A DNA stretch of 64,000 nt from Octopus vulgaris (Eukaryota). This document shows, in pieces, positions 4,127 through 62,758 of the stretch. Made by a program: the position numbers and the translations under genes. The stretch lies in assembly GCA_951406725.2 (NCBI GenBank), contig OX597824.1, positions 9,486,001-9,550,000 on the forward strand. Direction: 5' to 3'. Under the pieces are notes generated by a model. That model was not told the origin of the DNA, did no database searches, and saw only the letters and a program-made list of their open reading frames with translations. Position 1 is the stretch's first letter. Each line of letters begins with the position of its first letter.

Positions 4127-4466
4127 GTAAAGACCCCCTTCGGTCATGAGTGACCATGGGTTTGCACCTAGAGAGTTACCCTCTGAGGCACAAGTCTGGG
4201 CAAGGTTGTTTTTATGGAAGACCAGTAGTCGCCCATGCATACCGGCCTCCCCTCTCCACGCCACCAGTGTTATCCAAGGGAAAGACAAAGGCCGATACAG
4301 CTTGGCACCTGTGACGTCGCAACTCATTTCTACAGCTGAGTGAACTGGAGCAACGTGAAATAAAGCGTCTTGCTCAAGAACACAACACGCAGCCCGGTCC
4401 GGGATTCGAGCTCACAACCTCACGATCGTAAGCTCGACGCTCTAACCACTGAGCCATGCGCCTCCA
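4127..4466 (-). mobile_element. SINE family 3 (tRNA-derived head)
   Basis: A box tggctcagtggtt, B-box-like gagctcgaatccc and tgtgttcttgagcaagac core. Near-identical to 5068-5408. Confidence 0.9.
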
Positions 4467-4902
4467 TAAATAACATTTACATCCATAAATGTAAACATCT
4501 TGAATAACCTATGCAACTAGATGTATGTTTTAAGTAAAACATACATCACTGAATTATAAATAAGCAACACAGCTATACATTTAAAATACATTTTATATTT
4601 TAAATACATCCATATATCTTTAGACTCGGCATTTAGTTGCTTTAAATGAACTATATAAGTATAATTACACCATTAGAGCTATGTGGTCCACAGATCTAAT
4701 AGTCTAAGTGACGAAAGCCCCCACCAAACCAGACATTAGTGAGTGGGAACGACACATTGAATAATTTAGTTCAATGCCAAGAGGGAGAAATGAAATGGTC
4801 ATGGCTAGGCTGCTATTGATCACTGAGGTGTGACCATGGTATAAAAGCAATAACATATATACGTACAGACACACACAGGTGTATAAGTATATATATACGC
4901 AT

Positions 4903-4949
<47 letters not shown>

Positions 4950-5067
4950 AATATATATATTTGTACAAATATATATATATATATATATAATCTCATCCAT
5001 AGAAATAATATATATTATAGAAACTTGATAAGTATGTATATGTATGTGTGTATATGTATATGTATAG

Positions 5068-5408
5068 TGAAGGCGCATGGCTCAGTGGTTAGAGCGTCGA
5101 GCTTACGATCGTGAGGTTGTGAGCTCGAATCCCGGACCGGGCTGCGTGTTGTGTTCTTGAGCAAGACACTTTATTTCACGTTGCTCCAGTTCACTCAGCT
5201 GTAGAAATGAGTTGCGACGTCACAGGTGCCAAGCTGTATCGACCTTTGTCTTTCCCTTGGATAACACTGGCGGCGTGGAGAGGGGAGGCCGGTATGCATG
5301 GGCGACTACTGGTCTTCCATAAAACAACCTTGTCCAGACTTGTGCCTCAGAGGGTAACTCTCTCGGTGCAAACCCATGGTCACTCATGACCGAAGGGGGT
5401 CTTTACCC
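5068..5408 (+). mobile_element. SINE family 3
   Basis: Same head, boxes and core as 4127-4466, on the opposite strand. Confidence 0.9.
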
Positions 5409-7610: not shown

Positions 7611-7860
7611 TGGAGGCGCGTGTCTAAGTGGATAGGGTGTCAGCATCATGATCATAAGATTGTGGTTTCGATTCCTGGACCGAGCGACGCGTTGTGTTCT
7701 TGAGCAAAACACTTCATTTTACATTACTTAAGTCCACTCAGCTGGCAAAAATGAGTAACGCTGCGATGGACTGGCGTCCCGTCCAGCTGGGGAACACATA
7801 CGCCATAGAAACCCAGCCCATGAGCCTGGTTAGGCTTTAAAAGGGCGCATTTATTTATTA
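7611..7860 (+). mobile_element. tRNA-head SINE related to family 3, different tail
   Basis: Head tggaggcgcgtgtctaagtgg..ggtttcgattcc; TSD ttaaccgt(c/t)aatt. Confidence 0.8.
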
Positions 7861-8447
7861 TTAACCGTTAATTATCCTTTCGACTTAAAACATTATTATG
7901 AAAAATAGTGTTTAATAGTATTCAATGATAATTTCTGGTTTATAAAATGTATAGTTTAAGTGTTTATTGTAAATAATAGGTCTAATATTCATAGACAAAA
8001 TATAAGTGTTATATGTCATAATTAATTAACTATTCACAGTATTGGTATGTTATTGGGAAAATTTAGAAGTAGATACTATACGAGTAATAAGGTATAAATA
8101 AAGTCGAAATGAAGGGAATTTATTTCTTATCAACTTAGAAAATTATGAACGTATACATCTATATACAGCTATAGAAATAAGAAAGGTTTTCTTTTTTTGA
8201 TAGAGTATATCGACGAAAACTGTTTATATTATTGTTGAGTAAAGTTTAGCATAGAGAGGAAAACTCTAACTCTTTCACAAATATATATCTGCTAAATAGG
8301 GAACCTAAAATGGATCCATAGCTCCCGTCTCAGTTACGAGCTTGGAACCCTGATAATCTGTTACAGCATTTACCCATTTACCCTATTCGTTTAGTTCAAA
8401 AGTGAACTAAACCCCATATATTATCTCTCTCTCTCTCTCTCTCTCTA

Positions 8448-8500
<53 letters not shown>

Positions 8501-8502
<2 letters not shown>

Positions 8503-8700
8503 CCACGTGTGCATCGTTGGCGATTATTTTCCTCCGTCTTTTCTTCCTTGGATCTTTCCTTTTCCTGTGTTTCTCACGAAGAGCTCCGCTCGAAACGTTA
8601 AATCCTCCTCTTTCTTTCCTTTCCTGAGCGTCCAATAACACTATTCTTGTTCCATGTCCTCGCGTTGTTGTGTTTTCTCTTTGCGTTTTCATGTTTGGAT

Positions 8701-8703
<3 letters not shown>
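8501..8703 (+). mobile_element. Short HHR-bearing repeat family A (PLE pseudo-LTR-like) in (TA)n
   Basis: Homologous to 16603-16807, 17878-18083, 45661-45889 and 46133-46361. Its core reads CUCACGA-a-gagc-tcc-gctc-GAAA-cg-UU, with G5 mutated. Confidence 0.8.
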
Positions 8704-8776
<73 letters not shown>

Positions 8777-11249: not shown

Positions 11250-13300
11250 GTTCTAAATAACATATGGTCAACATTCCATGCGATAGTCTCGGTTGGAATG
11301 ACTTTAGTCTTTCGTCTGCAGAATCACAAGTTGGTGTTGGCTTAATCAATCACGCCACTGTAGATATTGATGCTGTGCCCCACAGCATGTTATTGAATCT
11401 ATGCAACCCTTTTGGAGTTTTAGAAAGTTCCATTTTTTGCTGTAAGGACCGGCACAAAATTTTACTTTCCACTAGAGAAGACTGGCTTGCTTCTTCACGG
11501 TTCATTGCAAAGAGAGCTGAGCATTTTTGCCATAGTTTTACAGAGGGTGTTCAGGAGGGAAAATCGTCTGGTAATTTTCCTGCATTTAACTGAGAAATTT
11601 CCATAGAAAATTTTGGTTGATCGTACGTTTTGAATTCTGTGTAGAGTTCCCCATGAGTTTTCGTCGAGTACTATCACAGAAGGAAATTAAACGCTCTTCC
11701 CTCGATATACATCTGTAGTTACAGGTTGAAATTTACATCTGGCGAGGATATGTAGGAAATATAACGCTCTTCCCTCGATATACATCTGTAGTTATAGGTT
11801 GGAATTTACATCTGGCGAGGATATGTAGGAAATTTAACGCTCTTCCCTCGATATACATCTGTAGTTATAGGTTGGAATTTACATCTGGCGAGGATATGTA
11901 GGAAATTTAACGCTCTTCCCTCGATATACATCTGTAGTTATAGGTTGGAATTTACATCTGGCGAGGATATGTAGGAAATTTAACGCTCTTCCCTCGATAT
12001 ACATCTGTAGTTATAGGTTGGAATTTACATCTGGCGAGGATATGTAGGAAATTTAACGCTCTTCCCTCGATATACATCTGTAGTTATAGGTTGGAATTTA
12101 CATCTGGCGAGGATATGTAGGAAATTTAACGCTCTTCCCTCGATATACATCTGTAGTTACAGGTTGAAATTTACATCTGGCGAGGATATGTAGGAAATAT
12201 AACGCTCTTCCCTCGATATACATCTGTATGTAGTTAGAGGTTGAAAATTACAACATCTTGCGTAGGAAATTTAACACCCTTCCCTCGATATACATATGTA
12301 GTTATAGGTTGAAAATTACAAGATCTGGCGAGGATATGTAGGAAATTTAACGCTCTTCCCTCGATATACATCTGTAGTTATAGGTTGGAATTTACATCTG
12401 GCGAGGATATGTAGGAAATTTAACGCTCTTCCCTCGATATACATCTGTAGTTATAGGTTGGAATTTACATCTGGCGAGGATATGTAGGAAATTTAACGCT
12501 CTTCCCTCGATATACATCTGTAGTTATAGGTTGGAATTTACATCTGGCGAGGATATGTAGGAAATTTAACGCTCTTCCCTCGATATACATCTGTAGTTAT
12601 AGGTTGGAATTTACATCTGGCGAGGATATGTAGGAAATTTAACGCTCTTCCCTCGATATACATCTGTAGTTACAGGTTGGAATTTACATCTGGCGAGGAT
12701 ATGTAGGAAATTTAACGCTCTTCCCTCGATATACATCTGTAGTTACAGGTTGGAATTTACATCTGGCGAGGATATGTAGGAAATTTAACGCTCTTCCCTC
12801 GATATACATCTGTAGTTACAGGTTGGAATTTACATCTGGCGAGGATATGTAGGAAATTTAACGCTCTTCCCTCGATATTCATCTGTAGTTAGAGGTTGGA
12901 ATTTACATCTGACGAGGATATGTAGGAAATTTAACGCTCTTCCCTCGATATACATCTGTAGTTACATGTTGGAATTTACAACATCTGGCGAGGATATGTA
13001 GAAACGTGGCATAAGGTTTAATGTCCTCATTTGGCGGCTGTATTTGATTTATGGACTTTACAGCTGGGAAATATTTCTAATTTAATCAATTTATAAATGC
13101 GGTGGAGTCTAAAATGTATAGACATCCCCCATGTGTGTCGATTAATCAACAAAAATTGTATTCTCAAGCTTAATGAATATGCGATAGAGCACAATTCTAG
13201 CAGTATTGATATTGATTCAAGCTGCAATATGGCGGAAGCTTAAAGATAAGAATACGTGAGGGACCAGAGCAAATTTGTTGTTCAGTTGAGTAGGGATTTA
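11250..13300 (-). mobile_element. Possible highly degenerate Ingi-like LINE remnant hosting the minisatellite
   Basis: Broken frames give SIAYS, IKP...FLHILA (cf. L.PTP..WLP.LA), CRSLQQKMELSKTP and IYSG in the expected order. Confidence 0.3.
11681..13001. repeat. 73-bp minisatellite, about 18 copies
   Basis: The unit aggaaatttaacgctcttccctcgatatacatctgtagttataggttggaatttacatctggcgaggatatgt is repeated head-to-tail with few variants. Confidence 0.97.
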
Positions 13301-16603: not shown

Positions 16604-16807
16604 GTTAATCCAAACAAAAAAGCACAAAAAAACACAACAAAGCGAGGATGTGGAACAAATATAGTATTATTGGACGCTCAGATAAGAAGGAAAGAAGGAG
16701 GGTTTAACGTTTCGAGCGGTGCTCTTCGTCGGAAACATAGGAGAAGGAAAGATCCAGAGAAGGGAAGACAGAGGAAAAACATCGCCAACGGTACACACGA
16801 GGTCACA
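16603..16807 (-). mobile_element. Short HHR-bearing repeat family A
   Basis: Same family; HHR motif at 16702-16736(-) with core CCGACGA. Flanked by (TATG)n. Confidence 0.8.
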
Positions 16808-16964
16808 TTTATGTACGTATGTATGTATGATGCATGTATGTATGTATGCATGCATGCATGTATGGATGTATGTATGTATGTATGTATGTATGTATTTATG
16901 TATGTATATATGTATGTATGTATGTATGTATATATATATACACATATATGCGTGTGTTTGTGTG

Positions 16965-17841: not shown

Positions 17842-17877
<36 letters not shown>

Positions 17878-17880
<3 letters not shown>

Positions 17881-18083
17881 ATCCAAACATGAAAACACAA
17901 AGAGAAAACACAACAACGCGAAGACGTGGAACAAGTATAGTATTATTGGACGCTCAGGAAGGAAGGGAAGAGGGAGGGTTTAACGTTTCGAGCGGAGCTC
18001 TTCGTCAGAAACATAAGAAAAGGAAAGGTCCAGAGAAGGGAAGACGGAGGAAAAAAAATCGCCAACGGTACACACACGGTCAC
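17878..18083 (-). mobile_element. Short HHR-bearing repeat family A, canonical core
   Basis: 17978-18012(-): gttt|CUGACGA|a|gagc-tcc-gctc|GAAA|cg|UU|aaac. Flanked by (TA)n. Confidence 0.82.
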
Positions 18084-18089
18084 ACTAAG

Positions 18090-18150
<61 letters not shown>

Positions 18151-22341: not shown

Positions 22342-22808
22342 GATAACACTCGTATACAATTTTGTCCACTCCGGATTAGATGAAAAGCGAAGCTAATGTC
22401 CTGGAAATTGAACTCAGAAAATAAAGAATCAGAACAAATATCTCAGAGTAACATTTCTGATGCTCCAGCGATTCCGGTAGCTAGCTACAATGATGACGGA
22501 ACATATTTCAAAAAATTGAAAGTCAATAACCTTAAAATATTTTATGTTTCAGATATCAAAATAATACAATAATTATAATAATGCCGTAAAGTACAGAATT
22601 TTTTTGTTCGAAAGATATAGTTCTGGTTGAAATACCAATGTAATTTCCCTCAAAACCAAATTTGCTATCTTTTCATAGGACAAATTGAATGATGATGCTC
22701 GCAGCATATTATTCTAGGAGATAATATGTCATGATTAAAAACGTGTATCGTTATAGATTTGTCTACTGCTTCAGAGCTGGCCATGGGCTAAATAGCAACA
22801 ACGTTATA

Positions 22809-25305: not shown

Positions 25306-25376
<71 letters not shown>

Positions 25377-25391
25377 TATATATATGTATGT

Positions 25392-26255
25392 ATTGTTGTT
25401 GGCATCCTTTCTGTCTCGGGAGACAATGGAGTTCAACATAAAGTAGTTTAGTCCGGCTTTTATATTTCATGTCTTGATACATTTCCTGCTGTGGAACTGT
25501 GTAGTCAATCTATCCTGGACAAACGCTACATGGCATTTTACCGCAAATGTGCGAAGACTGTTCCTGCTGGTTGTAATGCCATAGTCTCTTGTTGACGTCT
25601 CTTCTTTTCTTTCCATTTCTCCTCTCTCTCTCTCTGTCACTCCTTTGTATTCCCTCTTTTACGGTACGTCGCCATTCTCCACGGTTGCCGGCAACTGCCT
25701 CCCAACCGCTAATATTGATGTTGCAGGCCTTCATATCCCTTTTGCAAACATCCTGGTAACGTAAGATCGGTCTACCCACAGACCTAGTACCCCTAGCAAG
25801 CTCTCCGTAGAGTATGACCTTGGGGATTCTGCCATCTTTCATACGGCTAACATGCCCAAGCCATCTCATACGTCCTTGTGTGAGGAGTGCAAACATGCTT
25901 GGTATTCCTGCTTGCCTGAGGACATCTTTGTTGGGGGTATGATTCTGTCATTTGATGCGGAGGATTTTTCGGAGGCAGCGCAGGTGAAAGATGTTTAGGC
26001 GACGCTCTTGGCGTGTGTATAGCGTCCAGGTCTCACTTCCATACAGTAGAGTGCTGAGTACACATGCCTGGTAGATCTTCATTTTCGTGTTCTTGGTCAG
26101 CTTATTGTTGTCCCAAGCCCGTTTGGGGAGTTGGGCCATCGCAGCAGCTGCCTTGCCAATGCGTATATTGATCTCAGCGTCAAGGGATAGGTTGTAGGTA
26201 ACGGTAGAGCCCAGATAGGTAGAGCCCAGATGTATATAGCAGTGATATATAGCCC

Positions 26256-26260
<5 letters not shown>
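25392..26260 (-). mobile_element. RTE-clade LINE 3' fragment, copy 1
   Basis: Translation includes YLGSTVT, KIYQACVLSTLLYGSETWT, RWLGHVSRM and ILYGEL..G.RSVGRP. 3' tail is caacaacaat. Confidence 0.92.
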
Positions 26261-26314
<54 letters not shown>

Positions 26315-26331
26315 TATATATATATGTATGT

Positions 26332-27217
26332 ATTGTTGTTGGCATCCTTTCTGTCTCGGGAGACAATGGAGTTGCGCATAAAGTAGTTTAGTCCGGCTTT
26401 TATATTTCATGTCTTGATACATTTCCTGCTGTGGCTGTGTAGTCCTATCCTGGACAAACGCTCCCTCTGGCAGGTACCGCAAATGTAGCGAAGACTGTTC
26501 CTGGCTGGTTGTAATGCCATAGTCTCTTGTTGACGTCTCTTCTTTTCTTTCCATTTTCCTCTCTCTCTCTCTCTGTCACTCCTTTGTATTCCCTCTTTTA
26601 CGGTACGTCGCCATTCTCCACGGTTGCCGGCAACTGCCTCCCAGCCGCTAATATTGATGTTGCAGGCCTTCATATCCCTTTTGCAAACATCCTTGTAACG
26701 CAAGATCGGTCTACCCACAGACCTAGTACCCCTATGTATAAGCTCTCCGTAGAGTATGTCCTTGGGGATTCTGCCATCTTTCATACGGCTAACATGCCCA
26801 AGCCATCTCATACGTCCTTGTGTGAGGAGTGCAAACATGCTTGGTATTCCTGCTTGCCTGAGGACATCTTTGTTGGGGATATGATTCTGCCATTTGATGT
26901 GGAGGATTTTTCGGAGGCAGCGCAGGTGAAAGATGTTTAGGCGACGCTCTTGGCATGTGTATAGCGTCCAGGTCTCACTTCCATACTGTAGAGTGCTGAG
27001 TACACATGCCTGGTAGATCTTCATTTTCGTGTTCTTGGTCAGCTTATTGTTGTCCCAAGCCCGTTTAAGGGAGTTGGGCCATCGCAGCAGCTGCCTTGCC
27101 AATGCGTATATTGATCTCAGCGTCAAGGGATAGGTTGTAGGTGAAGGTAGAGCCCAGATAGGTAGAGCCCAGATGTATATAGCAGTGATATATAGCCCAG
27201 ATAGGTAGAGCCCAGAT
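26332..27217 (-). mobile_element. RTE-clade LINE 3' fragment, copy 2
   Basis: ORF 26407..27339 ends in the C2H2-like C..C.R...SRIGLHSHSRKC typical of RTE/BovB. Same 5' truncation as copy 1. Confidence 0.93.
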
Positions 27218-28509
27218 GTATATATGTAAGTATGTATGTATGCATGTATGTATGTATGTATGTATGTATGTATGTATGTATGTATGTATATGTAAAACAA
27301 GTTAGAAATAATGGTCATCCTATCTCTGCTTTCGTGCATTGGGTGTTCTAGCGCTATAATAGCAACGATGTGAGATAATGTAATGATTTCGTGAGTCTAG
27401 GCTTCTATAATATCATCTTATAACGGCCACCGAAACATGTGTAAAACGCTGCTAAAATTCTTTTCTTTCCCATTTTTTTTTCTTTGGGTAAAAAATACCC
27501 CGAATTCTCTTTGCAGGTTTCTCATTCTAATTATAAAGGAACACATAGCGTTCTAATCAGTGATTATATGTCACGCGTTTTGTGCATATACAGAAATTTA
27601 GGTACGTACATATATGTTTATATATATGCATACACATGTATGTATATATGTTTATATATGTTGATATATAAATACTTACATACATACATATATATATGTA
27701 TGTATGTATGTATGCATGCATGTATGTATGTACGTATGTATGTATATATTCCCTTTTTCGTCTTTTTTTCCTCACTTAACTTGTCTCTTCCTCTCTCTCT
27801 CATTCTTCATTCTCTCTCCCCCTCACCATTCTTCATGGTCTCCTCGCACCATTCCCCTTCTTCTCTCCCTTCCTCTTGCTCCTCCTCCCCCATTCCCGTC
27901 GTCCATCTGCGACGATACTTCCGTCGTAACTGCTATCCTGTCTTTTCTCGCCCGCCTTCTAAGGCTACTGGTCGACATTCCTGCTCTCTCGTCGTCCACT
28001 ATAATCCAGCGTTTGCAATACTTTTTTCGTCTGGCGTAAACAGCCCTTCTTATCTTGTTCTCCGTGTCCTGTCTCTTACTGTTATATATTTATTTTTCCA
28101 CTGTTTATATATATTTTTTTACTGTTTATATGTTTGTACTGTCGTTACCGTCTTGCTTTTTTTTACCATTTTTTACCCCTCTGCGAGATCCATATGGATG
28201 TCCACGACGAAGACGACGACGACGACGACGACGATAACGGTTACGACGACGATGATGACGACAATGATGATGATGGTGAGCGACTGAAGAAGGGGTTTTT
28301 TCGTTGTGCTAATTGTCCTGTACTCCTTTTTTTCTTGTCCTGTACTCCTTTTTTTCTTGTCCTGTTCCTTGGTTTGTGTCTATGTTTTTCGTCTCACTAT
28401 GTGTTCGACGTCTTTTTGGTGTCCTGTACACATATATGCGTGTATATGTACATGTAGAGGTAGGTACGTACATATATGTTTATATATATGCATATGTTCT
28501 ATTCTTTTA

Positions 28510-31636: not shown

Positions 31637-31781
31637 TACAAGTAATAAGAGAAAGACCACATGTGGTCACTCTAACGCTAGAAATATATCCGCAAAGGCA
31701 ATCCACCACTAAAGAATTCCCTTTGCGGATCTATTTCTAGCATTAGAGTGACCACATGTGGTTTCTCCCTTATTACTTGTA
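31637..31781. repeat. Fold-back/MITE-like hairpin
   Basis: ~60-bp arms tacaagtaataagagaaagaccacatgtggtcactcta..ccgcaaagg / cctttgcgg..tagagtgaccacatgtggtttctcccttattacttgta. Confidence 0.85.
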
Positions 31782-36771: not shown

Positions 36772-38348
36772 CATATATATCAACACATGAATAAGGGCAT
36801 ATTAAATATATGAAATATCCTAAGCTTCCAGAGAAGGTAGAAGAATCGCTGGTTGGCAAATGGAATGAAATTTTATATGAGAAGGCGGGCGTAATTTCAT
36901 AAATTAAGATTTCTTCAAAATTGATATCCCATTATCTGATTGTCTGGAAACAAGTGGACAATGGCGGGCAAGTGTTTCTACCTCAATAGCAGTCATCAGC
37001 ACAGCAGTTGACCTACCTTATAAGGCATATTTGTAGAAAAAAAATTAGAATAAACCAAATCTTTATGCCGACAATTATTTGCAAGCAACATATTTTTATT
37101 TTAAAAGGATATATTATATTGTAAATGAAGCATACGTTCAATTTATATCCAGGCTATTTTTTTCAATAAGATGTAAATATTATTTAAAGAAAAGAAACGT
37201 TCAGAGAGATGAAAAGTTCATTTATATCTAAGATTACACGCAAACCCTTGAAGATAATCCGAAATGTCACTATTTGCGTAATCCAACACAATACCGTTCT
37301 TTTAACGCTCTTTACTTATACGGGTGCACTCCATTGTAAAATAACTTCTCGAACCTCAACAAAATGCTGCTCATTACGACTAGCCTCCAACACACAAGAA
37401 GCATTTCAATGTGATCTAACGATGGAGTTATATAATTTCTATGCCAGGCTTCGTTATGATTATTTGTGCAATTTTCTTCTTGAACAATTATATTGTACAT
37501 ATTCCATGGAATAGGACTGAATAACGGGTGACCAATTGTTTACGGCACCCGATTTCAAGGACGTTGACTTTCTCGAAATATCACATTTTGGAAACATTTT
37601 CTTTCAGCTTTTGGAAGGTTTCCGGGAGCTGATCTTGTAGAACAAATGTAATCGTATTCACATTACCGTAACATTGGAAAAATGTCTTCATTGCTATTCT
37701 GCCGAATGACAAGCTCATTGTTCTCGTTTTCTTCCTAAAATGATTCAGAAAGGTGAAAGAAATAAACGTAGACAGGAATGCTAGTATCCAACACAGGGAT
37801 AAAAGAGTTGTTTACAACCAACTCAGTATCAGTTATATTACAATCTAGATTACGGTTAGCGAAAATTTCAACAAAGGTTTCCGAGGCGAATTGGCAGAGT
37901 TATTACAATGTCGGAGAAAATGATTCGCGTTACGTGTTCAGATACTCTGCGCCCTCAGTTCAAACTCCACCGATATCAATTTTGCCTTTGATCGTTTCAG
38001 AATAAATAAAAATAATTCCAAAGCACTTCAGAATGAAGGCTTTTGCGATTGCCTTCATAGGTTATATACTTTATCCATGGCCGAGTTTAAAACTACCACC
38101 TAGCATTTGGGTGCCTTTAGCGGAATCGATTCAGTCGCAAGCGTTCGTGTCAGGTTTCCGAAGTGAACATACTGTAATCCTTTCTTCCAACCAGTCTTGG
38201 AGACCCTATTTCCTTCGTTATTAAAAATAATTTTAAAAGATAATGCAGTATATTTCTACATTTTTCCAGGCGTAAACTTGCAGAATAAAGACTTCAATAG
38301 TCAATAGAAACTGCAACGACTGGTTTACAACAGCGAGAACTAATACAT

Positions 38349-38449: not shown

Positions 38450-39310
38450 CAGGGTGCATAAGATATTTGAGGAGAGATTTATGTTTATAAGAAAAAACAT
38501 ATATAGTAACAGATATGAAAAAATGCTATGAGGATAAAAATAAAGCCACCATCAGCTTCAACAACTGCTTTTGTATGAGATCTAAATCATCTACGTGCTC
38601 GAATCAAGTGGTCTTGGTTCATTTTGGACATTGCTCTGACTATGGCAGCATTCAAATAATAGTTGTTGTTATGGGCGTTTACATTGACCTCTCTCTCGAC
38701 AACGTTCCACATGTAATAGTGAAATGGATTGAGATCTGGCGAATTAAGAGGCTAAATGTTAGGGATTATGTGATCATGAAAATTTTCAGCCATCCATTCC
38801 TGTGTTACTAGAGCCATGTGTGATTGTGTACAGTCATACTGAACACACAAGGCCTTCTAGTGCATACACTATGTATACATGACTTAACAATTGTTTGCAG
38901 GACCTCAATGTGGGCGGCAGAGTTAACTCTAAGGCCTTGTGGAAATAAGTAAGGTGGCATCACATGCCCATCATTGCTGACAACCCCTAAAACCATGATA
39001 GTTTCAGGAAATTTTGTATGCATGACACTTGGAACTTCAGAAGGTTTTGCTCATAGCCATCTGTCAGTTCTTTTGTTAACTTTTTGATCTTGGTCGAAGT
39101 GTTTCTCGTTTGAGAAAAAATTCTACTGGACTTTTCAGTATGTTTAAGAACCTTTTAGATCTAATGTAATGATTTTCGTTTGCTTTTTCTGACAAATTAC
39201 CTTTCCTCATCATACAATACTTGTATGTGATGTCTTCGTGGATAACATTTCTGATTGTTCCTACTGACACATGGAGATCCTTTGCAATTGACCTGATGGA
39301 CATGGTGGGA
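38450..39310 (-). mobile_element. Tc1/mariner-superfamily (maT/DD37D-like) transposase fossil
   Basis: SIRSIAKDLHVS..TIRNVIHED, TKFP..MVLGVVSNDGHVMPP..GLRVN, NSPDLNP..YYMW and AVVEADGG. Terminus is cagggtg. Confidence 0.82.
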
Positions 39311-39779
39311 TTGTAATATAACTGAGTTGTAAATAACTCTTTTATTCCTGTGTTGGATGCTAGCATTCCTGTCTACGTTTATTTCTTTCACCTTTCTGAA
39401 TCATTTTAGGAAGAAAACGAGAACAATGAGCTTGTCATTCGGCAGAATAGCAACGAAGACATTTTTCCTATGTTACGGTAATGTGAATACGATTACATTT
39501 GTTCTACAAGATCAGCTCCCGGAAACCTTCCATAAGCTGAAAGAAAATTTTCCAAATATGATATTTCGAGAAAGTCGATGTCCTTGAAATCAGGTGCCGT
39601 AAACAATTGGTCACCCGTTATTCAGTCCTATTCCATGGAATATGTACAATATAATTGTTGAAGAAGAAAATTGCACAAATAATCATAACGAAGCCTGGCA
39701 TAGAAATTATATAAATCCATCGTTAGATCACATTGAAATGCTTCTTGTGTGTTGGAGGCTAGTCGTAATGAGCAGCATT
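39309..39779 (+). mobile_element. Segment containing MULE-like transposase remnant; inverted copy at 37363-37845
   Basis: LFSPIPWNMYN....CTNNHNEAWHR resembles the W..Y....RTNN..E.WH motif of Mutator-like transposases. Confidence 0.6.
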
Positions 39780-44778: not shown

Positions 44779-45613
44779 GGTTAAAAATTGTTAAAATAAT
44801 AAACTTATACCAGTGGTTAGCCTGTGTAGAAAAGGTCTTAGACATAAATATTTTTATAATATATACGAGTGTATAAAAATTTATACACGGAGAGAAGGCC
44901 ACTAAGTGGTCTTCTTACATGCCAAAAAGGGCAGTCAAACCCTAAGCCATGAAAAATATTCTTATTTACAGCACTTTGATTGTAAGCGAGGAGGAGAAAT
45001 TGAGAGAATTAACATATCAGATAATTCTCCATTCCGACGTTTCACCATGGGTGATAATATAAATCAATCAATTAATTAATTAATTAATTAATTGATTGTT
45101 TAACCAACCATCTGTGGATCTTCAGTGCTATAAATCATTATTTCAAAAAAATTTACCCTTATATTTTATATATTTGAGTATTTTAATTCTTGGGTCAGAT
45201 AACTCACTGTTGAACTTATTCACTGCTCTTCTATTCCAGCTCTGTACATGGATTGTGGACATTTTGATTTGAATTTCTGAGGTATAAAGATGAAATTAAG
45301 TACACACGTGTTTTCTTTTCTACTTTTGTTAGGTATTCTAGTTTTATAATTATATATCTTCAGCGATTCTACTGAAGACCCAATGATGTTTGATTAATCA
45401 ATTAACTAATTTATTTATTTATTTATTCATTTAATTATGAATGGTGAAACTTCGGAGTATAAAATTAACTGACATTTTAATTCCCTCAATTTGTCCTCCT
45501 CGCTTGCAATCGGAGTGATCTTAATAAGAATGTTTTACGTGGTTTGGAGTTTTCGCTGCCCTTTTCAACATGAACATAAATTTTGAACATAAATTTTATA
45601 CACTCATAAACTT

Positions 45614-45660
<47 letters not shown>

Positions 45661-45663
<3 letters not shown>

Positions 45664-45889
45664 TCCTTCCGGCCTCTCAACATGTGACCGCGTGTGTACC
45701 GTTGGCAATTTTTTTCCTCTGCCTTCCCTTCCTTCTCTGGATCTTTCCTTCTCCTATGTTTCCGACGAAGAGCTCCGCTCGAAACGTTAAACCCTCATTC
45801 TTTCCTTCTTTCCTGAGCGTCCAATAATACTATATTTGTTCCACGTCCTCGCGTTGTTGTGTTTTTTGTGCTTTCTTGTTTGGATTATC
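45661..45889 (+). mobile_element. Short HHR-bearing repeat family A
   Basis: HHR at 45758-45792: gttt|CCGACGA|a|gagc-tcc-gctc|GAAA|cg|UU|aaac. Confidence 0.82.
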
Positions 45890-46132
45890 AGAAACATGAC
45901 CGAATCCACATTGAGATACATCGCTGCTTTGTTTATTTTTATATCTGTTATCTCCAAAGTTAATTAAGTGCCGTTCATCTTTTGGTTCTTATAATTAGGT
46001 TCTTAAAAACAACAGGTTTGCTAATTTGATTGCAGTTTCTTTTTGACACATCTGTAATCATTTCCGATTACCTAGTGCACGCGTTGATGCGGTTTTATGA
46101 TTGTCTTACTTTCTAAGGCTTATATATATACA

Positions 46133-46460
<328 letters not shown>

Positions 46461-46469
46461 GTGTGTGTG

Positions 46470-46662
46470 TGGAGGCGCAATGGCCCAGTGGTTAGGGCAG
46501 CAGACTCGCCGTCGGAGGATTCCCAGACCGGGAGTTGTGTGTGCTTATTGAGCGAAAACACCTAAAAAACACCTGGCCTCCCGTCCAGCCGGGACGAACA
46601 CATACGCTACAGAAACCAATAAACCAGTCCTATGAGCCTGCCTTGGCTTGAAAAGGGCGACG
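46470..46662 (+). mobile_element. Chimeric/deleted tRNA-head SINE abutting the PLE
   Basis: Head matches 62555-62662(-); tail matches 7770-7848. Confidence 0.72.
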
Positions 46663-46670
46663 TGTATCGT

Positions 46671-47204
46671 CTAATATTTTTAACTAAATTTTTGAATACT
46701 ATAGGGGGATGGCATGAACCTACATTAATATAACTTAGTCTATCATTGGGCTTCCTATAAGGCTTATAAATATTATTATTAAGATCTAAGGAAACGTCTA
46801 AGAAATTGACAACCGTCAGGTTAGTGTCTATAGTTATACTAAGTCCGAAGTGTTTCATTAACTGGATAATATCCTTCCTAAAACGATCTTGTGCTGGTCC
46901 ATTTGTATTAGCTGTTAAGGCGAGGGCATCATCTTTGTAGATGGCGAAATGTACGTTAGGGAATGTCTTACCGAAGGTATCTAGGAGAAAGAGTCCAATT
47001 AGATCACAGATGCCTGCCCCATCATATGAACCCATGCTCACATCGAAAGCGCCCTCCGTGTCGGTGTTTTTTACCCACTTTGCATTCTCACTGAAAAGTA
47101 ATGTCTTTCTAGCATGGAAGATTATATCCTTATCTTTGGTACTAATTTCTATGAAGTCACTAGCGAAGATTAGGGCTTTATCTAGCAGTTCTTTAGAGAT
47201 AGAT
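46671..47204 (-). pseudogene. Inverted duplicate of PLE RT segment
   Basis: ORF 46607..47443(-) reads SISKELLDKALIFA...KNLVKNI. It is identical in translation to the + copy over the shared part. Confidence 0.92.
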
Positions 47205-47726
47205 AAAGCCCTAATCTTCGCTAGTGACTTCATAGAAATTAGTACCAAAGATAAGGATATAATCTTCCATGCTAGAAAGACATTACTTTTCAGTGAGAAT
47301 GCAAAGTGGGTAAAAAACACCGACACGGAGGGCGCTTTCGATGTGAGCATGGGTTCATATGATGGGGCAGGCATCTGTGATCTAATTGGACTCTTTCTCC
47401 TAGATACCTTCGGTAAGACATTCCCTAACGTACATTTCGCCATCTACAAAGATGATGCCCTCGCCTTAACAGCTAATACAAATGGACCAGCACAAGATCG
47501 TTTTAGGAAGGATATTATCCAGTTAATGAAACACTTCGGACTTAGTATAACTATAGACACTAACCTGACGGTTGTCAATTTCTTAGACGTTTCCTTAGAT
47601 CTTAATAATAATATTTATAAGCCTTATAGGAAGCCCAATGATAGACTAAGTTATATTAATGTAGGTTCATGCCATCCCCCTATAGTATTCAAAAATTTAG
47701 TTAAAAATATTAGTGAGGATTTCTAG
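47201..47726 (+). pseudogene. PLE reverse transcriptase, C-terminal part (lacks N-terminus and first catalytic motif)
   Basis: ORF 46941..47726 from DKALIFA onward contains MGSYDGAG, YKDDA and NFLDVSLDL. The upstream part of that ORF is only the antisense translation of the inverted arm. Confidence 0.9.
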
Positions 47727-48534
47727 CCTCTCATCTAATGAGGACATCTTCAATAGCGTTGCCCCAGTTTATAATAAAGCTTTAAAAGATAGTGGTTTTA
47801 GCGAAAAAATAAAATATACACCTATCACCAGCCCAACAATAAGGAAAAGGAATAATAGAAATAGGAAGGTCATCTGGTTTACGCCCCCTTACTCACCCGA
47901 GGTGGCCTTCAATATAGGTAAATATTTCCTAGCACTGATAGATAGACATTTTCCAGTTAACCATGCTTATAGGAAACTCTTCAATAGACACAATTTAAAA
48001 ATTAGTTTTAGTTCAACTACCAATTTTAAAAACATAATCAATCATAACATACAAAAAACACAAGAAGAAAACAGCTGTTCATGCAGGAATAAAGAATTGT
48101 GCCCGCTAAATGGAGCTTGCATGTCCAAGACCATCATATATGAAGCTACCGTAAACTCTATAACCACTAAAGACACCGTTTCGACGAAGAAATACGTGGG
48201 CCTGACAGAGGGTAATTTCAAGGCCAGGTTCAATAACCACACTTTGAGCTTTAGGCACTGGAACAAAAGAAAAGCGACACAATTATCCAATCATATTTGG
48301 TCTTTAAGAGATAAAGGTGTCGATTATAACATACAATGGAAGATTTTGGCCAGATGTAAGCCCTATACTAACGGCAGCGGAAGGTGCGGTTTATGCGACA
48401 TGGAGAGATGGCTTATCTGGAAAAGCAGCTTAGACCCTACCACATGTCTAAATACAAGGACAGAGCTTTTCGGATCATGCCCACATGTGACTAAATTTCT
48501 GTTACGTTTTTGGTCCCCTAAAGAAAACGGATAG
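47713..48534 (+). pseudogene. PLE RT thumb/linker and GIY-YIG endonuclease, out of frame with upstream RT
   Basis: Motifs RISSLSSN, WFTPPYS, CSC..CPLNGAC, IIYEA..KYVGLTEGNFKARFNNH, LSNHIW, CGLC.E and LNTRTE..CPH..KFLL. Confidence 0.9.
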
Positions 48535-48721
48535 AACATGCTTTCTGTGTTATGTCCCAAGAAGATTTTATATATTTTTATATATTTTTATATATTTTTA
48601 TGTATTTTTATATAATTTTTATGACGAAAAATGCGAGCGATGTATAAGTACGCAGGCAAAGCAGAGTTATAACAGTAATTTCCCTTCATTTTTAACGGTA
48701 TTTTTTCAAAACGTTTTCAAA

Positions 48722-48795
48722 TAGCCAGATAACCGAAGAGATGGTGTTGTGGATTTCCACTTCGGCATCTGAAACTCAGAGTTTTATCTTGACTA
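48722..48795 (+). ncRNA. Type-I hammerhead ribozyme in PLE 3' UTR
   Basis: gataa|CCGAAGA|gatg..catc(t)|GAAA|ctc-a-gag|UU|ttatc. Helix I extends as tagccagataa/ttatcttgacta. U4C core variant. Confidence 0.72.
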
Positions 48796-48889
48796 CCGAG
48801 TAATGTAACATATTGTATAGATAAATTTCCTCTATTTACATAATATTGAGGTCTCTTTCTTTCTTTTGTTATCTTACCGTTTTATCAAT

Positions 48890-48906
48890 ATATAATATAT
48901 ATATAT

Positions 48907-48989
<83 letters not shown>

Positions 48990-48991
48990 AT

Positions 48992-49022
<31 letters not shown>

Positions 49023-49035
49023 GTATACATATATA

Positions 49036-49132
<97 letters not shown>

Positions 49133-49255
49133 TATAATATATATCTATATATATATACATGTATATATATATATATATGTATACATATATATATGCATGT
49201 GTACATGTAATGTATACATGTAAGATATATATATATATCTGTCTATATATATATT

Positions 49256-49317
<62 letters not shown>

Positions 49318-49326
49318 GTATATATA
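48890..49326. repeat. Long (TA)n tract at PLE 3' end
   Basis: Direct inspection. Confidence 0.97.
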
Positions 49327-50505
49327 CATCCCACTTACTCATTTCATTTAGGTGTTTTTTATTTCGTGTCCTTATTTTTACGCGTTTTCGCATTCATATT
49401 TGTATTCCATCATATACACACCTAAATCAAATATACATATCACTTTGTTCTGTTAGGTTTAATGAACCTTCACTTGATTATATGAACATTTCCTTTGGTA
49501 AAGATATATGTGTCTTGGTGATTATATATTATTAAGTAGGAAAAATTATAAGAAAAGTTAATTAAAAATCAACATCAGAGCAAATTCCACATCAGAAACA
49601 TGACCGAATCCACATTGAGATACATCGCTGCTTTGTTTATTTTTATATCTGTTATCTCCAACGTTAATTAAGTGCCGTTCATCTTTTGGTTCTTATAATT
49701 AGGTTCTTAAAAACAACAGGTTTGCTAATTTGATTGCAGTTTCTTTTTGACACATCTGTAATCATTTCCGATTACCTAGTGCACGCGTTGATGCGGTTTT
49801 ATGATTGTCTTACTTTCTAAGGCTTATATAGAGAAGCGATATGTTCAAAGGTTCAGTTACTAAGAATGAAACAAAAATGAGCAAATGAAAAGATTTGCGC
49901 AGATCGTCGACAGAAGTTATTTCAGAGATTATCAGAAGGAGAATGTGGCTGAAGAAATTTACTACACAACTTCTGCTGGCGTTCGTACTTATCGAAATAT
50001 ATATAAATAAGTGTACGTAGGTCAGGTGAAGAAAAAGTGCGCGAACACAGGTATGTAATCACAAAGTCTTGCGTATATATATATGTGTGTACGGTTCATT
50101 AAGTGGTGGTGTTTTGCGTGTGTGTGTGAGTGTGTGATTATTTTTATAAAGCATGTTTCAGAATACCGACAGAATATATATTAATAGGAAAATGAGTGCT
50201 TAAAATATGATACAACTCGTTTTGATTTAGGCTTCAAGTACACACACAGACACACACATATATGTATACACTTTTGTGACCTTCCTCTCATGACCTGGCA
50301 GAGTGAAAATTTCTACTTAAAAGTGAAAATTTCTACTTAAAAAAAAAAGAACGGTTCAAAACCATTATAATGTTATCGTAATTGCAAAGCACTGCCCATG
50401 AAGCTACGCTCCATCACTTTATAAGTACAGATACATACATAGACACATGTACACAAACACACACAGACACACACAGACAAATACATACTACACACACTCG
50501 CATAA

Positions 50506-50824: not shown

Positions 50825-51490
50825 TCTTGGTTTATATCCAAGTCTTTGCTTTGCAGTTAAACCGGGTCATATTAAAAATACGATCAGACGTCCGAAATCT
50901 GGTTCCGATTCCCCTGTTGCACTCCTTGAAAGCATACCAAAGTAATGCAGCAAAACAAATAGCGAAAAGTGTAGGGGCAAGACTATCTCCCTGTTCGACA
51001 CCATTGTCCACCGAACACTCATGAGATAGCTCACCATTAAAGACAACTTGAGCTTTCATATTTCTGTGTATTTCCTTAAAAATGCTCACAAAATATGTTG
51101 GTCAACCAAGTTTACACGAAGCAATCCATAGTGCCTCACTGTTTACCATGTCAAATGCCTTACTTAAATATACGAAGAGCTGGTTTAGTGGCATTTGTTC
51201 CCCTAAGCATTTCTTTTGAGCCTGCCTCACGGAAAATATCATGTCCATCGCTCCTCGCTCAGGTCTGAAACCGCACTGTTCTTCAGGAATCACATGTGGA
51301 CACATATTCTGAACAAGACGATCTAACACGGTATGTTCCAGAAGAGTTATCCCTCTAGAATAACCACACAGTGCTTTCGGGCCCTTACCCTTGGATACAG
51401 AGATAAGAATGCCATTTATCCATACTTGTGGCACAGAGGATCCATTCCAAACACGAGTTATTAGGTTATGAACTTCAGATGAAATACTTA
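50825..51490 (-). mobile_element. RTE-clade LINE RT fragment (degenerate)
   Basis: RGITLL, PEEQCGFRPERGAMDMIFSVRQ, LSKAFDMVN and GVEQGDSLAPTLF. Confidence 0.88.
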
Positions 51491-51671
51491 CGCTCTGCCA
51501 TTTTGTCCCGTTGTACGTGTCTTTATTTGCGCATGCGTATACCTCTATGTGTGTCTATGTATAGTTAGTGTGTGGTGGGGAGTGCTTGTAATATTTGTAT
51601 CTCGTGTTTATACACGTTCGTGTAATTTGTTTTTGTTTATTTTGTTCATGTATTTACACCTACTTATTATC

Positions 51672-53603: not shown

Positions 53604-53823
53604 ATCATCATTATTATTTAATTTTGGTTACATTTCTACTTGTCTCATTGTTCTTGCTTTTGTTCTTATTTTCATATACACACAACATATTAGACATTTG
53701 GAAATGAAAAATTCCTAACATTGGGCTACAACAAGTAACCTTAAATACCGAGAACCCCCACCTCCCTAAGTAACCTAGCTGTCCCTAATAACACAACGAC
53801 AGATATTATTCAGCAACAGTACT

Positions 53824-54066
53824 TTGGAGTAAAAGTTGTTTGCCAACATAGCATGGCAGTCATGGTTTAGGATGAATGTTGCTGTAATTTAGCCCCAGAA
53901 GACATAGTCTCCAGCTGGCTATACGACACGATTTGTGTTCGAAAATATAACGACACAGATCGTGTCGTATAGCCAGCTGGAGACGATGTCAGCTGGACTA
54001 AATAACAGCAACATTTGTCCTAAACCAGGACTGCCATGCTATGTTGGCAAACAATCTTTACTCCAA
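53824..54066. repeat. Long fold-back hairpin of a dispersed repeat
   Basis: ~115-bp imperfect arms around a ~10-nt loop. A diverged single arm occurs at ~19395-19491. Confidence 0.88.
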
Positions 54067-55094
54067 AACCAAACACTCTCGTCAGAAACATAACGACCGG
54101 ATGATAATCTGATAGAAAACTAATGATTTGACACTATATATATTGAAAATTACTATTCAGCTAAACAACCAGCCGAGAAATGCATGAAAACGTAATGTCG
54201 ACAATCTTGTTTTGATAAGAACAATTATTTTTTTTAAATGATAGAATCGCATTATTTATTTATTTATTTATTTTGTAATTAAATACTTTTTTCCATTTAT
54301 TTTCAGATTATCTGTTTTATTTTCCATAAGAAAACAAATATAAACAGAAATTTAGTCTTAACTGATTTTTAAGCAACTTATTGCAAATTTTAAATGATGA
54401 GACCAAATTAGTTTTTAAATTAAATATATGTTTAATTATGTTCTTGTTTGGTGTATGTGAGTGTGATTTCGTTATGTTCAGCGTTTTTCACAACATAATA
54501 AACATTTGACTGTTTTAAATTACTTAGTAGTATTTCCAATAATTCTTTGAAATTCTTAGCTCAAGTCTGCAATTTTGAGGGGAGGGGAAGTCGATTACGT
54601 CGACCCCAGTGCACAACAGTTCGTATTTATCGATCCAGAAAGTGAAATGCAAACCTCAGCGGCTTTTGATCTCAGAATGTAAAGGGCAGGAAGAAATACC
54701 GCTATGTATTTTGTTCGACACACCAAAAGTTTCGCCAACTCGTCGTCTTCCTATCGACCTATGAATAATGACAAGCAAAGCTGATCATAGTGTCATTTAA
54801 TTGCAGAACCTAATATTACAGAACGCAAAACCGCAGTCTTATGGGTTTCGTGCTTTGTGGGTACATCCCAAACTGTCCAGCTTCGTTGTAACAATGATTC
54901 TTGATTTTAGCAAAACACCAGCTGTAATGAATAGAAATGCAGGTGGACTACTTTGGCACCTGTCATTGACAGGTGCTTTATTTTATTAACCGCGGAAAAA
55001 CTGGCGTCTCTGAACTCACAATATGAAAAAAACGGAAGTAATGAAGTTGAAAATACACAGAGAATATATTAAAATTAATTTGATTTTAATTATA

Positions 55095-62295: not shown

Positions 62296-62662
62296 GTGGT
62301 CTTCGCCCCAGAGCTCGCAAGATCGCGCCTCAGGAGAAGTCCGAAACGTGGTCCTTTGCTATTCGTAAGACCCGCAGAAGAGAAAGCAGGTCAATCCCCG
62401 ACACCGAAAGCATCGACGGATGGATGAATGCGCATCCAGGCTCAGCGGTTGCGTTGGAAGTCGGGGACAAGAAACAGGAAGAAAGAGTGAGAGAAAGTTG
62501 GGATGAAAGAGTGCAACAGGGGTCATTACCACCCACTGCCGGAGCCTCGTGGAGCTTTAGGTGTTTTCGCTCAATAAACACACAACGCCCGGTATAGGAA
62601 TCGAAACCGCGATCCTTTGACCGCGAGGCCTCTGCCCTAACCACTGGGCCATTACGCCTCCA
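62296..62662 (-). mobile_element. tRNA-head SINE (family 4)
   Basis: ggaggcgtaatggcccagtggttagggc..ggtttcgattcc head; the 3' end runs into AAC/AAAC repeats. Confidence 0.8.
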
Positions 62663-62758
62663 CTGTTGTTGTTGCTCTGTAGTTTCAACGTCGGCCGTCA
62701 TCGAACAGACCGCTGATCAAAGTCACACCAGCTATAACCAGTCTTAACTCTATGTCTA

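Follow-up and report, generated by a model that had tools for sequence, protein, structure and literature searches.

Architecture of the locus

The window, the whole 64,000-nucleotide stretch of Octopus vulgaris DNA analysed here, contains what its sequence identifies as a 5'-truncated, frameshifted Penelope-like element (PLE) of the Hydra clade, beginning with a long and perfect palindrome. The PLE copy is dead, and the palindrome has no evident function. A search of public runs with positions 47185-48880 listed 24 runs, 20 of which held at least half of its words. Four of the 24 were compared with this stretch: X1, X2 and X16, as contigs, and X24, as raw reads, which was uninformative (1 read of 12.9 million matched). 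The locus is built from the following features:

46469..46659, plus strand: chimeric tRNA-like SINE, the upstream flank, with 78-79% matches to 62556-62663 and 7771-7847
46660..46670, no strand: 11 nt between the SINE end and the left arm
46671..47203, minus strand: inverted reverse transcriptase (RT) segment of 533 nt (left arm, spacer and 4-nt stem), with an open minus-strand frame matching relatives; the family antisense strand agrees through 47203 and then differs
47185..47199, antisense to the main body: spacer or hairpin loop, 15 nt, where contigs X1 record 1 and X16 record 4 change strand
47200..47203, no strand: fold microhomology of 4 nt, pairing with 47181-47184 and native to the family (X1 and X16 contigs)
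47200..47713, plus strand: right arm, with the RT core (MGS at 47349, YKDD at 47445) and the start of the thumb
47249, no strand: rare base, mirrored at 47135 in the left arm; another base stands in 295038 of 295758 (99.8%) of the X2 depth and in the single covering contigs of X1 and X16
47714..47715, plus strand: 2-nt loss responsible for the frameshift, one base beyond the arm end (47713), placed by family contigs and relatives' spacing
47716..48534, plus strand: thumb, CxCx5C linker (48076-48102) and GIY-YIG endonuclease without CCHH, with CxxC at 48385 and CxH at 48478, assigned from motifs and PF01541
48727..48789, plus strand: minimal hammerhead-like motif of the 3' UTR, its core a variant, found by eye against the Hydra hammerhead table (PMC8557442 supplement)
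48889..49330, no strand: (TA)n tract at the element 3' end; X2 loose ends behind 48877-48878 run into (AT)n

Identity of the element

The clade assignment draws on a set of marks described for Hydra elements: a CxCx5C linker, the lack of a CCHH finger, a CxxC plus a CxH, a (TA)n target and a hammerhead-type 3' motif (PMC8557442). The copy shares the first four and has a hammerhead-like 3' motif; it departs from the clade in the variant core of that motif, its 5' truncation and its frameshift. RT and GIY-YIG endonuclease follow one another in the expected order, with all 12 longer relatives aligning over both pieces. The linker reads CSCRNKELC at 48076-48102, the endonuclease core has no cysteine pair between IIY and YVG, and a CGLC (CxxC) and a CPH (CxH) lie near the C terminus; the PF01541 match is weak (E 0.016, below cut-off). 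The N-terminal RWK/DKT region is missing from the copy; among the 12 relatives, 6 have RWK, and those of sufficient length have DKT or a variant of it. Membership of the Naiad group was rejected on the C-terminal position of the endonuclease. At the 3' end the (TA)n insertion feature is present, and on the upstream side stand the SINE end and 11 nt.

The 3' UTR motif has a core that reads CCGAAGA against the canonical CUGANGA, with C for the consensus U, and its stems I-III match the Hydra layout by eye. In predicted folds, stem II appears in the minimum free energy structure and stem I in the centroid (z -1.26); an Rfam search of the motif gave no hammerhead match, and the family contigs list no variant at the core C position. 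PMC4209133 and 10.64898/2026.07.22.740005 provide hammerhead context only.

Of the named proteins compared, the nearest is Hydra-1_Obim (Craig et al. 2021, PMC8557442), which by eye shares 29 of 34 residues with the copy around the frameshift. It represents a different family, as its endonuclease linker and hammerhead sequences differ. Protein searches returned no near-identical family member, only 12 matches at 38-45% and 68 at 38-54%. Viral contigs gave 0 matches to an exact 29-nt pattern, and 0 of 20 candidates for the endonuclease part were confirmed in them. Metagenome contigs yielded 12 loci of distant relatives (32-64% identity), with an inverted repeat longer than 34 nt in 0 of 12; these are short contigs of other families and give no evidence either way.

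A perfect palindrome with an antisense spacer

The two arms, 46671-47184 and 47200-47713, are exact reverse complements over 514 nt with 0 mismatches when the 64-kb window is compared with itself, and they form the longest of its 7134 inverted pairs. The preliminary description had reported precisely this palindrome and its 15-nt spacer, and self-alignment bears it out. It had also stated that the spacer reads as RT on the minus strand only, and this holds as well: SISKELLDKAL is readable through 47185-47199 solely on the minus strand, from which RT sequence continues in the same orientation to 46671; from 47200 on, the plus strand carries this RT sequence too. In tblastn, the best minus-strand match begins at 47203 in all 12 longer relatives, and the plus-strand match begins at 47199-47208 in 11 of them. 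All 12 align with the window in three places: over the right arm (frame +3), over 47701-48531 (frame +1) and, on the minus strand, over the left arm beginning at 47203.

The overlap at the fold had been given as 5 nt (47200-47204). An overlap exists, and its length is 4 nt: in antisense, two contig records (X1 record 1, X16 record 4) agree with the spacer and with 47200-47203, beyond which they run into other letters as loose ends. The four bases are therefore native to the family, and the fifth was rejected because the family antisense strand continues differently behind 47203. A short inverted complement at the turn, as in snap-back, is thus already present in family contigs, as a 4-nt stem with a 15-nt loop. 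When forced, the stem has a free energy of +0.7 kcal/mol (DNA parameters), which makes it weak and unstable alone. An overlap of at least 4 nt is expected at 1.9% (0.019) of random inverted junctions, and a stem of at least 4 nt within a 30-nt loop is offered by 12-15% of positions along the antisense strand. A microRNA at the palindrome centre was considered and rejected; the Rfam microRNA matches there are all under the gathering score and reflect the perfect hairpin.

A frameshift beside the arm end

The open reading frame changes frame once, from +3 to +1, near 47714. Contigs that bridge this point carry 2 extra bases (one contig in X1, one in X16 and two in X2), and the distance between a conserved H codon and a conserved R codon is 43 nt in the window against 45 expected, with 15 residues between the two in all 48 relatives that span the site (80 examined). 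At the same place, the Hydra-1_Obim protein reads ISKRIS (PMC8557442). In the X2 depth at 47714 the 2 bases are shown in 5099 of 87684; the remainder is uninterpretable as copies lacking them, as short contigs may end there. Whether the frameshift sits in the family consensus or in non-inverted copies had been proposed as a check, and it is absent from the bridging X1, X16 and X2 family contigs.

The preliminary description had set the frameshift at the outer end of the right arm (~47713). It does adjoin the arm end, but the 2-nt loss lies behind 47714, one base outside. That it is the only frameshift also holds for the ORF; a second 2-nt shortfall against the family contigs is found at 48671-48673, in the 3' UTR. 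Given two indels in 1678 bp, a lesion would fall within 2 nt of the arm end by chance with a probability of 0.006. The 3' UTR shortfall counts against a special origin of the first, as it shows that the copy can differ by indels away from any arm.

Two further comparisons bear on when the lesions and the arms arose. Over 47328-48880, X16 record 8 differs from the window copy by 2 other letters and 4 gap letters, and on this near identity the copy is young, which favours lesions made at insertion. The rare base at 47249 and its mirror at 47135 imply either that one arm served as template for the other or that a single template yielded both; the shared base fits a second arm copied from the first strand, and could also stem from the RNA.

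Among other family members, single X2 contigs join 47608 with 47914 and 48250 with 48466 on opposite strands, and these represent other inverted family copies. In another X2 contig, listed without direction, 5 letters separate 47203 from 48658, and this contig may mark a second junction at the same stop point.

Flanks and target site

The SINE that forms the upstream flank begins with what reads in its sequence as an A-box-like, putatively pol III, start. The 11 nt that follow it at 46660..46670 are either a degenerate remnant of the (TA)n target or junction filler. They differ from the tail of the sole other SINE copy in the window (7848 on); their one exact match, at 22741 in an unrelated context, was rejected as chance, as was a 4-bp hairpin at 46659-46671. 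No target-site duplication can be seen at the locus, nor does the upstream flank share visible microhomology with the RNA immediately past the arm end; this flank is also not a pure (TA)n tract. There is no upstream copy of 47714-48889: the inverted part stops at the mirror of 47713.

The interval 45661-46361 holds two copies, facing inward, of a dispersed repeat of ~230 bp that has a hammerhead-like core, their arms 1 mismatch apart; other copies of this repeat occur at 8446-8716, 16606-16808 and 17865-18142. The 240-bp piece they enclose, 45887-46126, is 239/240 identical to DNA across the PLE (49591-49830). The 240-bp structure resembles a templated insertion combined with fold-back, or else a genomic piece twin-primed at each end, and it may stem from the same event as the palindrome. 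An older inverted pair (78%) lies near the palindrome at 44925-45126 and 45371-45565.

A proposed second cDNA folded back on itself

The palindrome is real and beyond chance, and is most likely the scar of an insertion with self-priming. Our reading is that, in one insertion event, a second cDNA of 533 nt, primed by the upstream target end, underwent snap-back, served as its own template and then switched to the first cDNA, and we give this a probability of about one half. The order of the product can be read along the plus strand: flank, antisense RT piece (533 nt), sense copy starting from the native 4-nt stem, 2-nt loss, remaining element and (TA)n. The cutting, priming, folding and jumping that would have produced it are what we infer.

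In this scheme, the element endonuclease would have cut both strands of a TA-rich site. The downstream end would have primed the first cDNA at the RNA 3' end, and its synthesis would have stopped ~3 nt short of the arm-end position. The second cDNA would have been started at the arm-end position by the upstream end, which would not have base-paired with the RNA there and may have used an RNA break; this cDNA would correspond to the segment 46671..47203, running 5' to 3' on the plus strand. After 533 nt, its 3' end would have folded onto the 4-nt complement 15 nt back, presumably held there by the enzyme, given the instability of the stem by itself, and would have been elongated with its own strand as template as far as the flank junction. 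The strand would then have jumped to the 3' end of the first cDNA, with 1 base replacing 3 family bases, and gone on as second strand, after which the other strand would have been filled in.

An antisense spacer implies that the folded strand began at the arm end, as its 5' end is needed there and a simple snap-back of one cDNA does not give such a spacer. Against the scheme, the base at 47714 is the family base rather than the complement of the flank end, so that copying into the flank is not seen; the restriction to one locus, the lack of a visible target-site duplication, the impure upstream flank, the weak stem and the run listings, in which neither junction of this locus occurs, also weigh against it. 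The inverted piece starts near the lesion (arm end at 47713, lesion behind 47714), as in twin priming, provided that the lesion marks the end of the first cDNA. Purified PLE protein (PAc) cleaves and extends both target strands and starts reverse transcription with no homology to the cut DNA (PMC11167929), which excuses the missing primer microhomology at the locus.

The combination of internal priming and self-priming proposed in the preliminary description is therefore upheld in part. The absence of the lesion from the family, the native 4-nt stem and the minus-strand spacer speak for it. Against it, there is no flank/RNA microhomology, the same product can be reached by other routes, and internal priming enters as a deduction; it is the likeliest origin, not the only one. 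The further claim, that the locus is a direct footprint of how PLE inversions form, goes too far: this is one copy, with an inverted part that has no 3' end, unlike the inverted PLE copies described in PMC8557442.

Other routes to the same structure

The best placed of the alternatives, though unlikely, is twin priming with read-through and no self-priming. The first cDNA would have passed the second priming site with a 2-nt slip, and both cDNA 3' ends, near one RNA 5' end or pause, would have annealed via the same 4 nt. This would give an identical sequence, the antisense spacer included; internal duplication is reported in 283 of 1703 L1 inversions (10.1101/2024.08.27.596794), and the X2 contig joining 47203 to 48658 may mark a recurrent stop near 47203. 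The route nevertheless needs the two cDNAs, having overlapped for 514 nt, to terminate no more than 19 nt apart, whereas the L1 duplications have a median of 22 bp (10.1101/2024.08.27.596794) and the overlaps a median of 12 bp (PMC12016303), and the rare base of both arms must have been in the RNA.

Next comes an improbable pathway with one cDNA, which would have snapped back at the 4-nt stem, followed either by a nick at the arm-end position with the hairpin joined in reverse, or by a later flip of the spacer between perfect arms. Snap-back of R2 with upstream junctions to antisense sequence is documented (PMC11371274), the PLE endonuclease favours 5'-ATT-3' (PMC11167929) and the sequence at the arm end is AT-rich, and for inverted repeats both inversion of the spacer and homogenisation of the arms by template switching have been described (PMC8604942). 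Plain snap-back, however, predicts a sense spacer and an unlesioned sense copy, and the locus calls for two additional events, one falling precisely on the mirror of the flank junction.

Third, and also improbable, is an assembly or consensus artefact, in which the palindrome or the 2-nt loss would come from a chimeric read or from two family copies wrongly joined at a repeat boundary. In its favour, the flank junction 46670|46671 and the fold junction 47203|47204 are absent among the joints and loose ends listed for the four runs. The 100% identity of the arms, the trouble that inverted PLE structures cause in assemblies (PMC8557442) and the presence of another near-perfect inverted duplication ~300 bp upstream point the same way. 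Yet a fold-back read should enter the reverse complement of the upstream flank, not the endonuclease half, and the window is free of any N. The rare base, kept in both arms, would tend to be erased by polishing with family reads, and the 240-bp piece common to both flanks suggests one locus.

Rearrangement after insertion, whether in a head-to-head pair with two 3' ends from which deletion or cruciform processing removed most of the left copy, or in an older copy where a template switch at replication built the palindrome, is very unlikely: head-to-head 5'-truncated copies are the usual PLE form, including Penelope-13_HM of the Hydra clade (PMC8557442), and short-microhomology fold-back occurs at breaks with no retroelement involved (PMC11724301), but the lesion at the mirror of the deletion end would be left to chance (~0.006) or to an unusual four-way cut, and a copy so near the family contigs had little time.

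Comparison with known systems

Published precedents exist for self-priming (PLEs), for twin priming (L1) and for snap-back (R2). PLE inverted copies are described as 5'-truncated with the 3' end kept (PMC8557442), and this typical feature, an inverted copy with its 3' end or pLTR, is missing here; the inverted part differs in the same way from that of Penelope-13_HM. For PLE junction palindromes, self-priming on an antisense template has been proposed (Arkhipova et al. 2013, PMC3846280). The locus is like those head-to-head PLEs in having a palindrome at the inverted junction and an antisense strand as the self-primed template. Their inverted parts, however, are pLTRs and their template is thought to be antisense RNA, whereas the arm here is internal RT sequence, and the spacer polarity and arm-end lesion point to a cDNA begun inside the element.

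L1 twin priming (Ostertag and Kazazian 2001, as cited in PMC12016303 and 10.1101/2024.08.27.596794) likewise yields an inverted 5' segment that starts where the non-inverted part has a small lesion. The locus differs in the extra 514-bp sense copy between the two cDNAs and in that no primer-RNA microhomology is seen; the L1 variants termed 5' and 3' switching involve a change of RNA template and no fold-back. In R2, snap-back 5' junctions have been described (Zhang et al. 2024, PMC11371274), where a cDNA 3' end also primes on cDNA and the upstream target is joined to antisense sequence. R2 uses one cDNA and would be expected to leave a sense loop and an unlesioned sense copy, both unlike the locus. 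Fold-back inversions at DNA breaks (PMC11724301) and L1-associated inverted duplications (10.1101/2024.12.14.628481) form a further point of comparison. Break fold-backs, made by host polymerases, share the short stem, small loop and inverted duplication, but copy genomic DNA at a resected end, whereas the folded strand here is element sequence. No report of twin priming combined with self-priming or snap-back in a PLE was found in the literature searched, which covers subscription journals thinly.

Implications for PLE inversions

The route to tandem and inverted PLE insertions is named as an open problem in PMC8557442, and the steps after first-strand synthesis are left unvalidated in PMC11167929. 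It is tempting, if doubtful, to generalise: PLE RT would routinely prime from both cut strands, snap-back of the upstream cDNA would start the second strand, and this copy would preserve all three joints. Antisense spacers and arm-end lesions would then be common in palindromic PLE copies, as marks of a general DNA-level mechanism for PLE inverted structures. If the self-priming reading of this locus holds, two marks, the polarity of the spacer and a lesion mirroring the outer arm end, could be scored in long-read genomes rich in young PLE copies, where they would separate self-priming from two-cDNA annealing. PLE inversions would be tied to cDNA, not to antisense RNA, and a retroelement would be seen to make a long perfect palindrome in one step. 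A single locus is a lead and no proof.

Other repeats in the window

Several other repeats accompany the PLE. Inverted repeats of ~480 bp at 37363-37845 and 39309-39779 (95% identity, 1.46-kb interior) resemble a DNA transposon or a derivative of one. Two imperfectly self-complementary, MITE-like sequences lie at 53823-54067 (246 bp, 86%) and 31637-31781 (145 bp, 86%), and an inverted SINE pair with 95% identity occupies 4127-4493 and 5037-5406. Tandem repetition is represented by a 73-bp array of ~18 units at 11681-13004 and a 1-kb duplication (94%) at 25318-27277. Finally, a minus-strand ORF at 51102-51554 looks like a fragment of a LINE RT.
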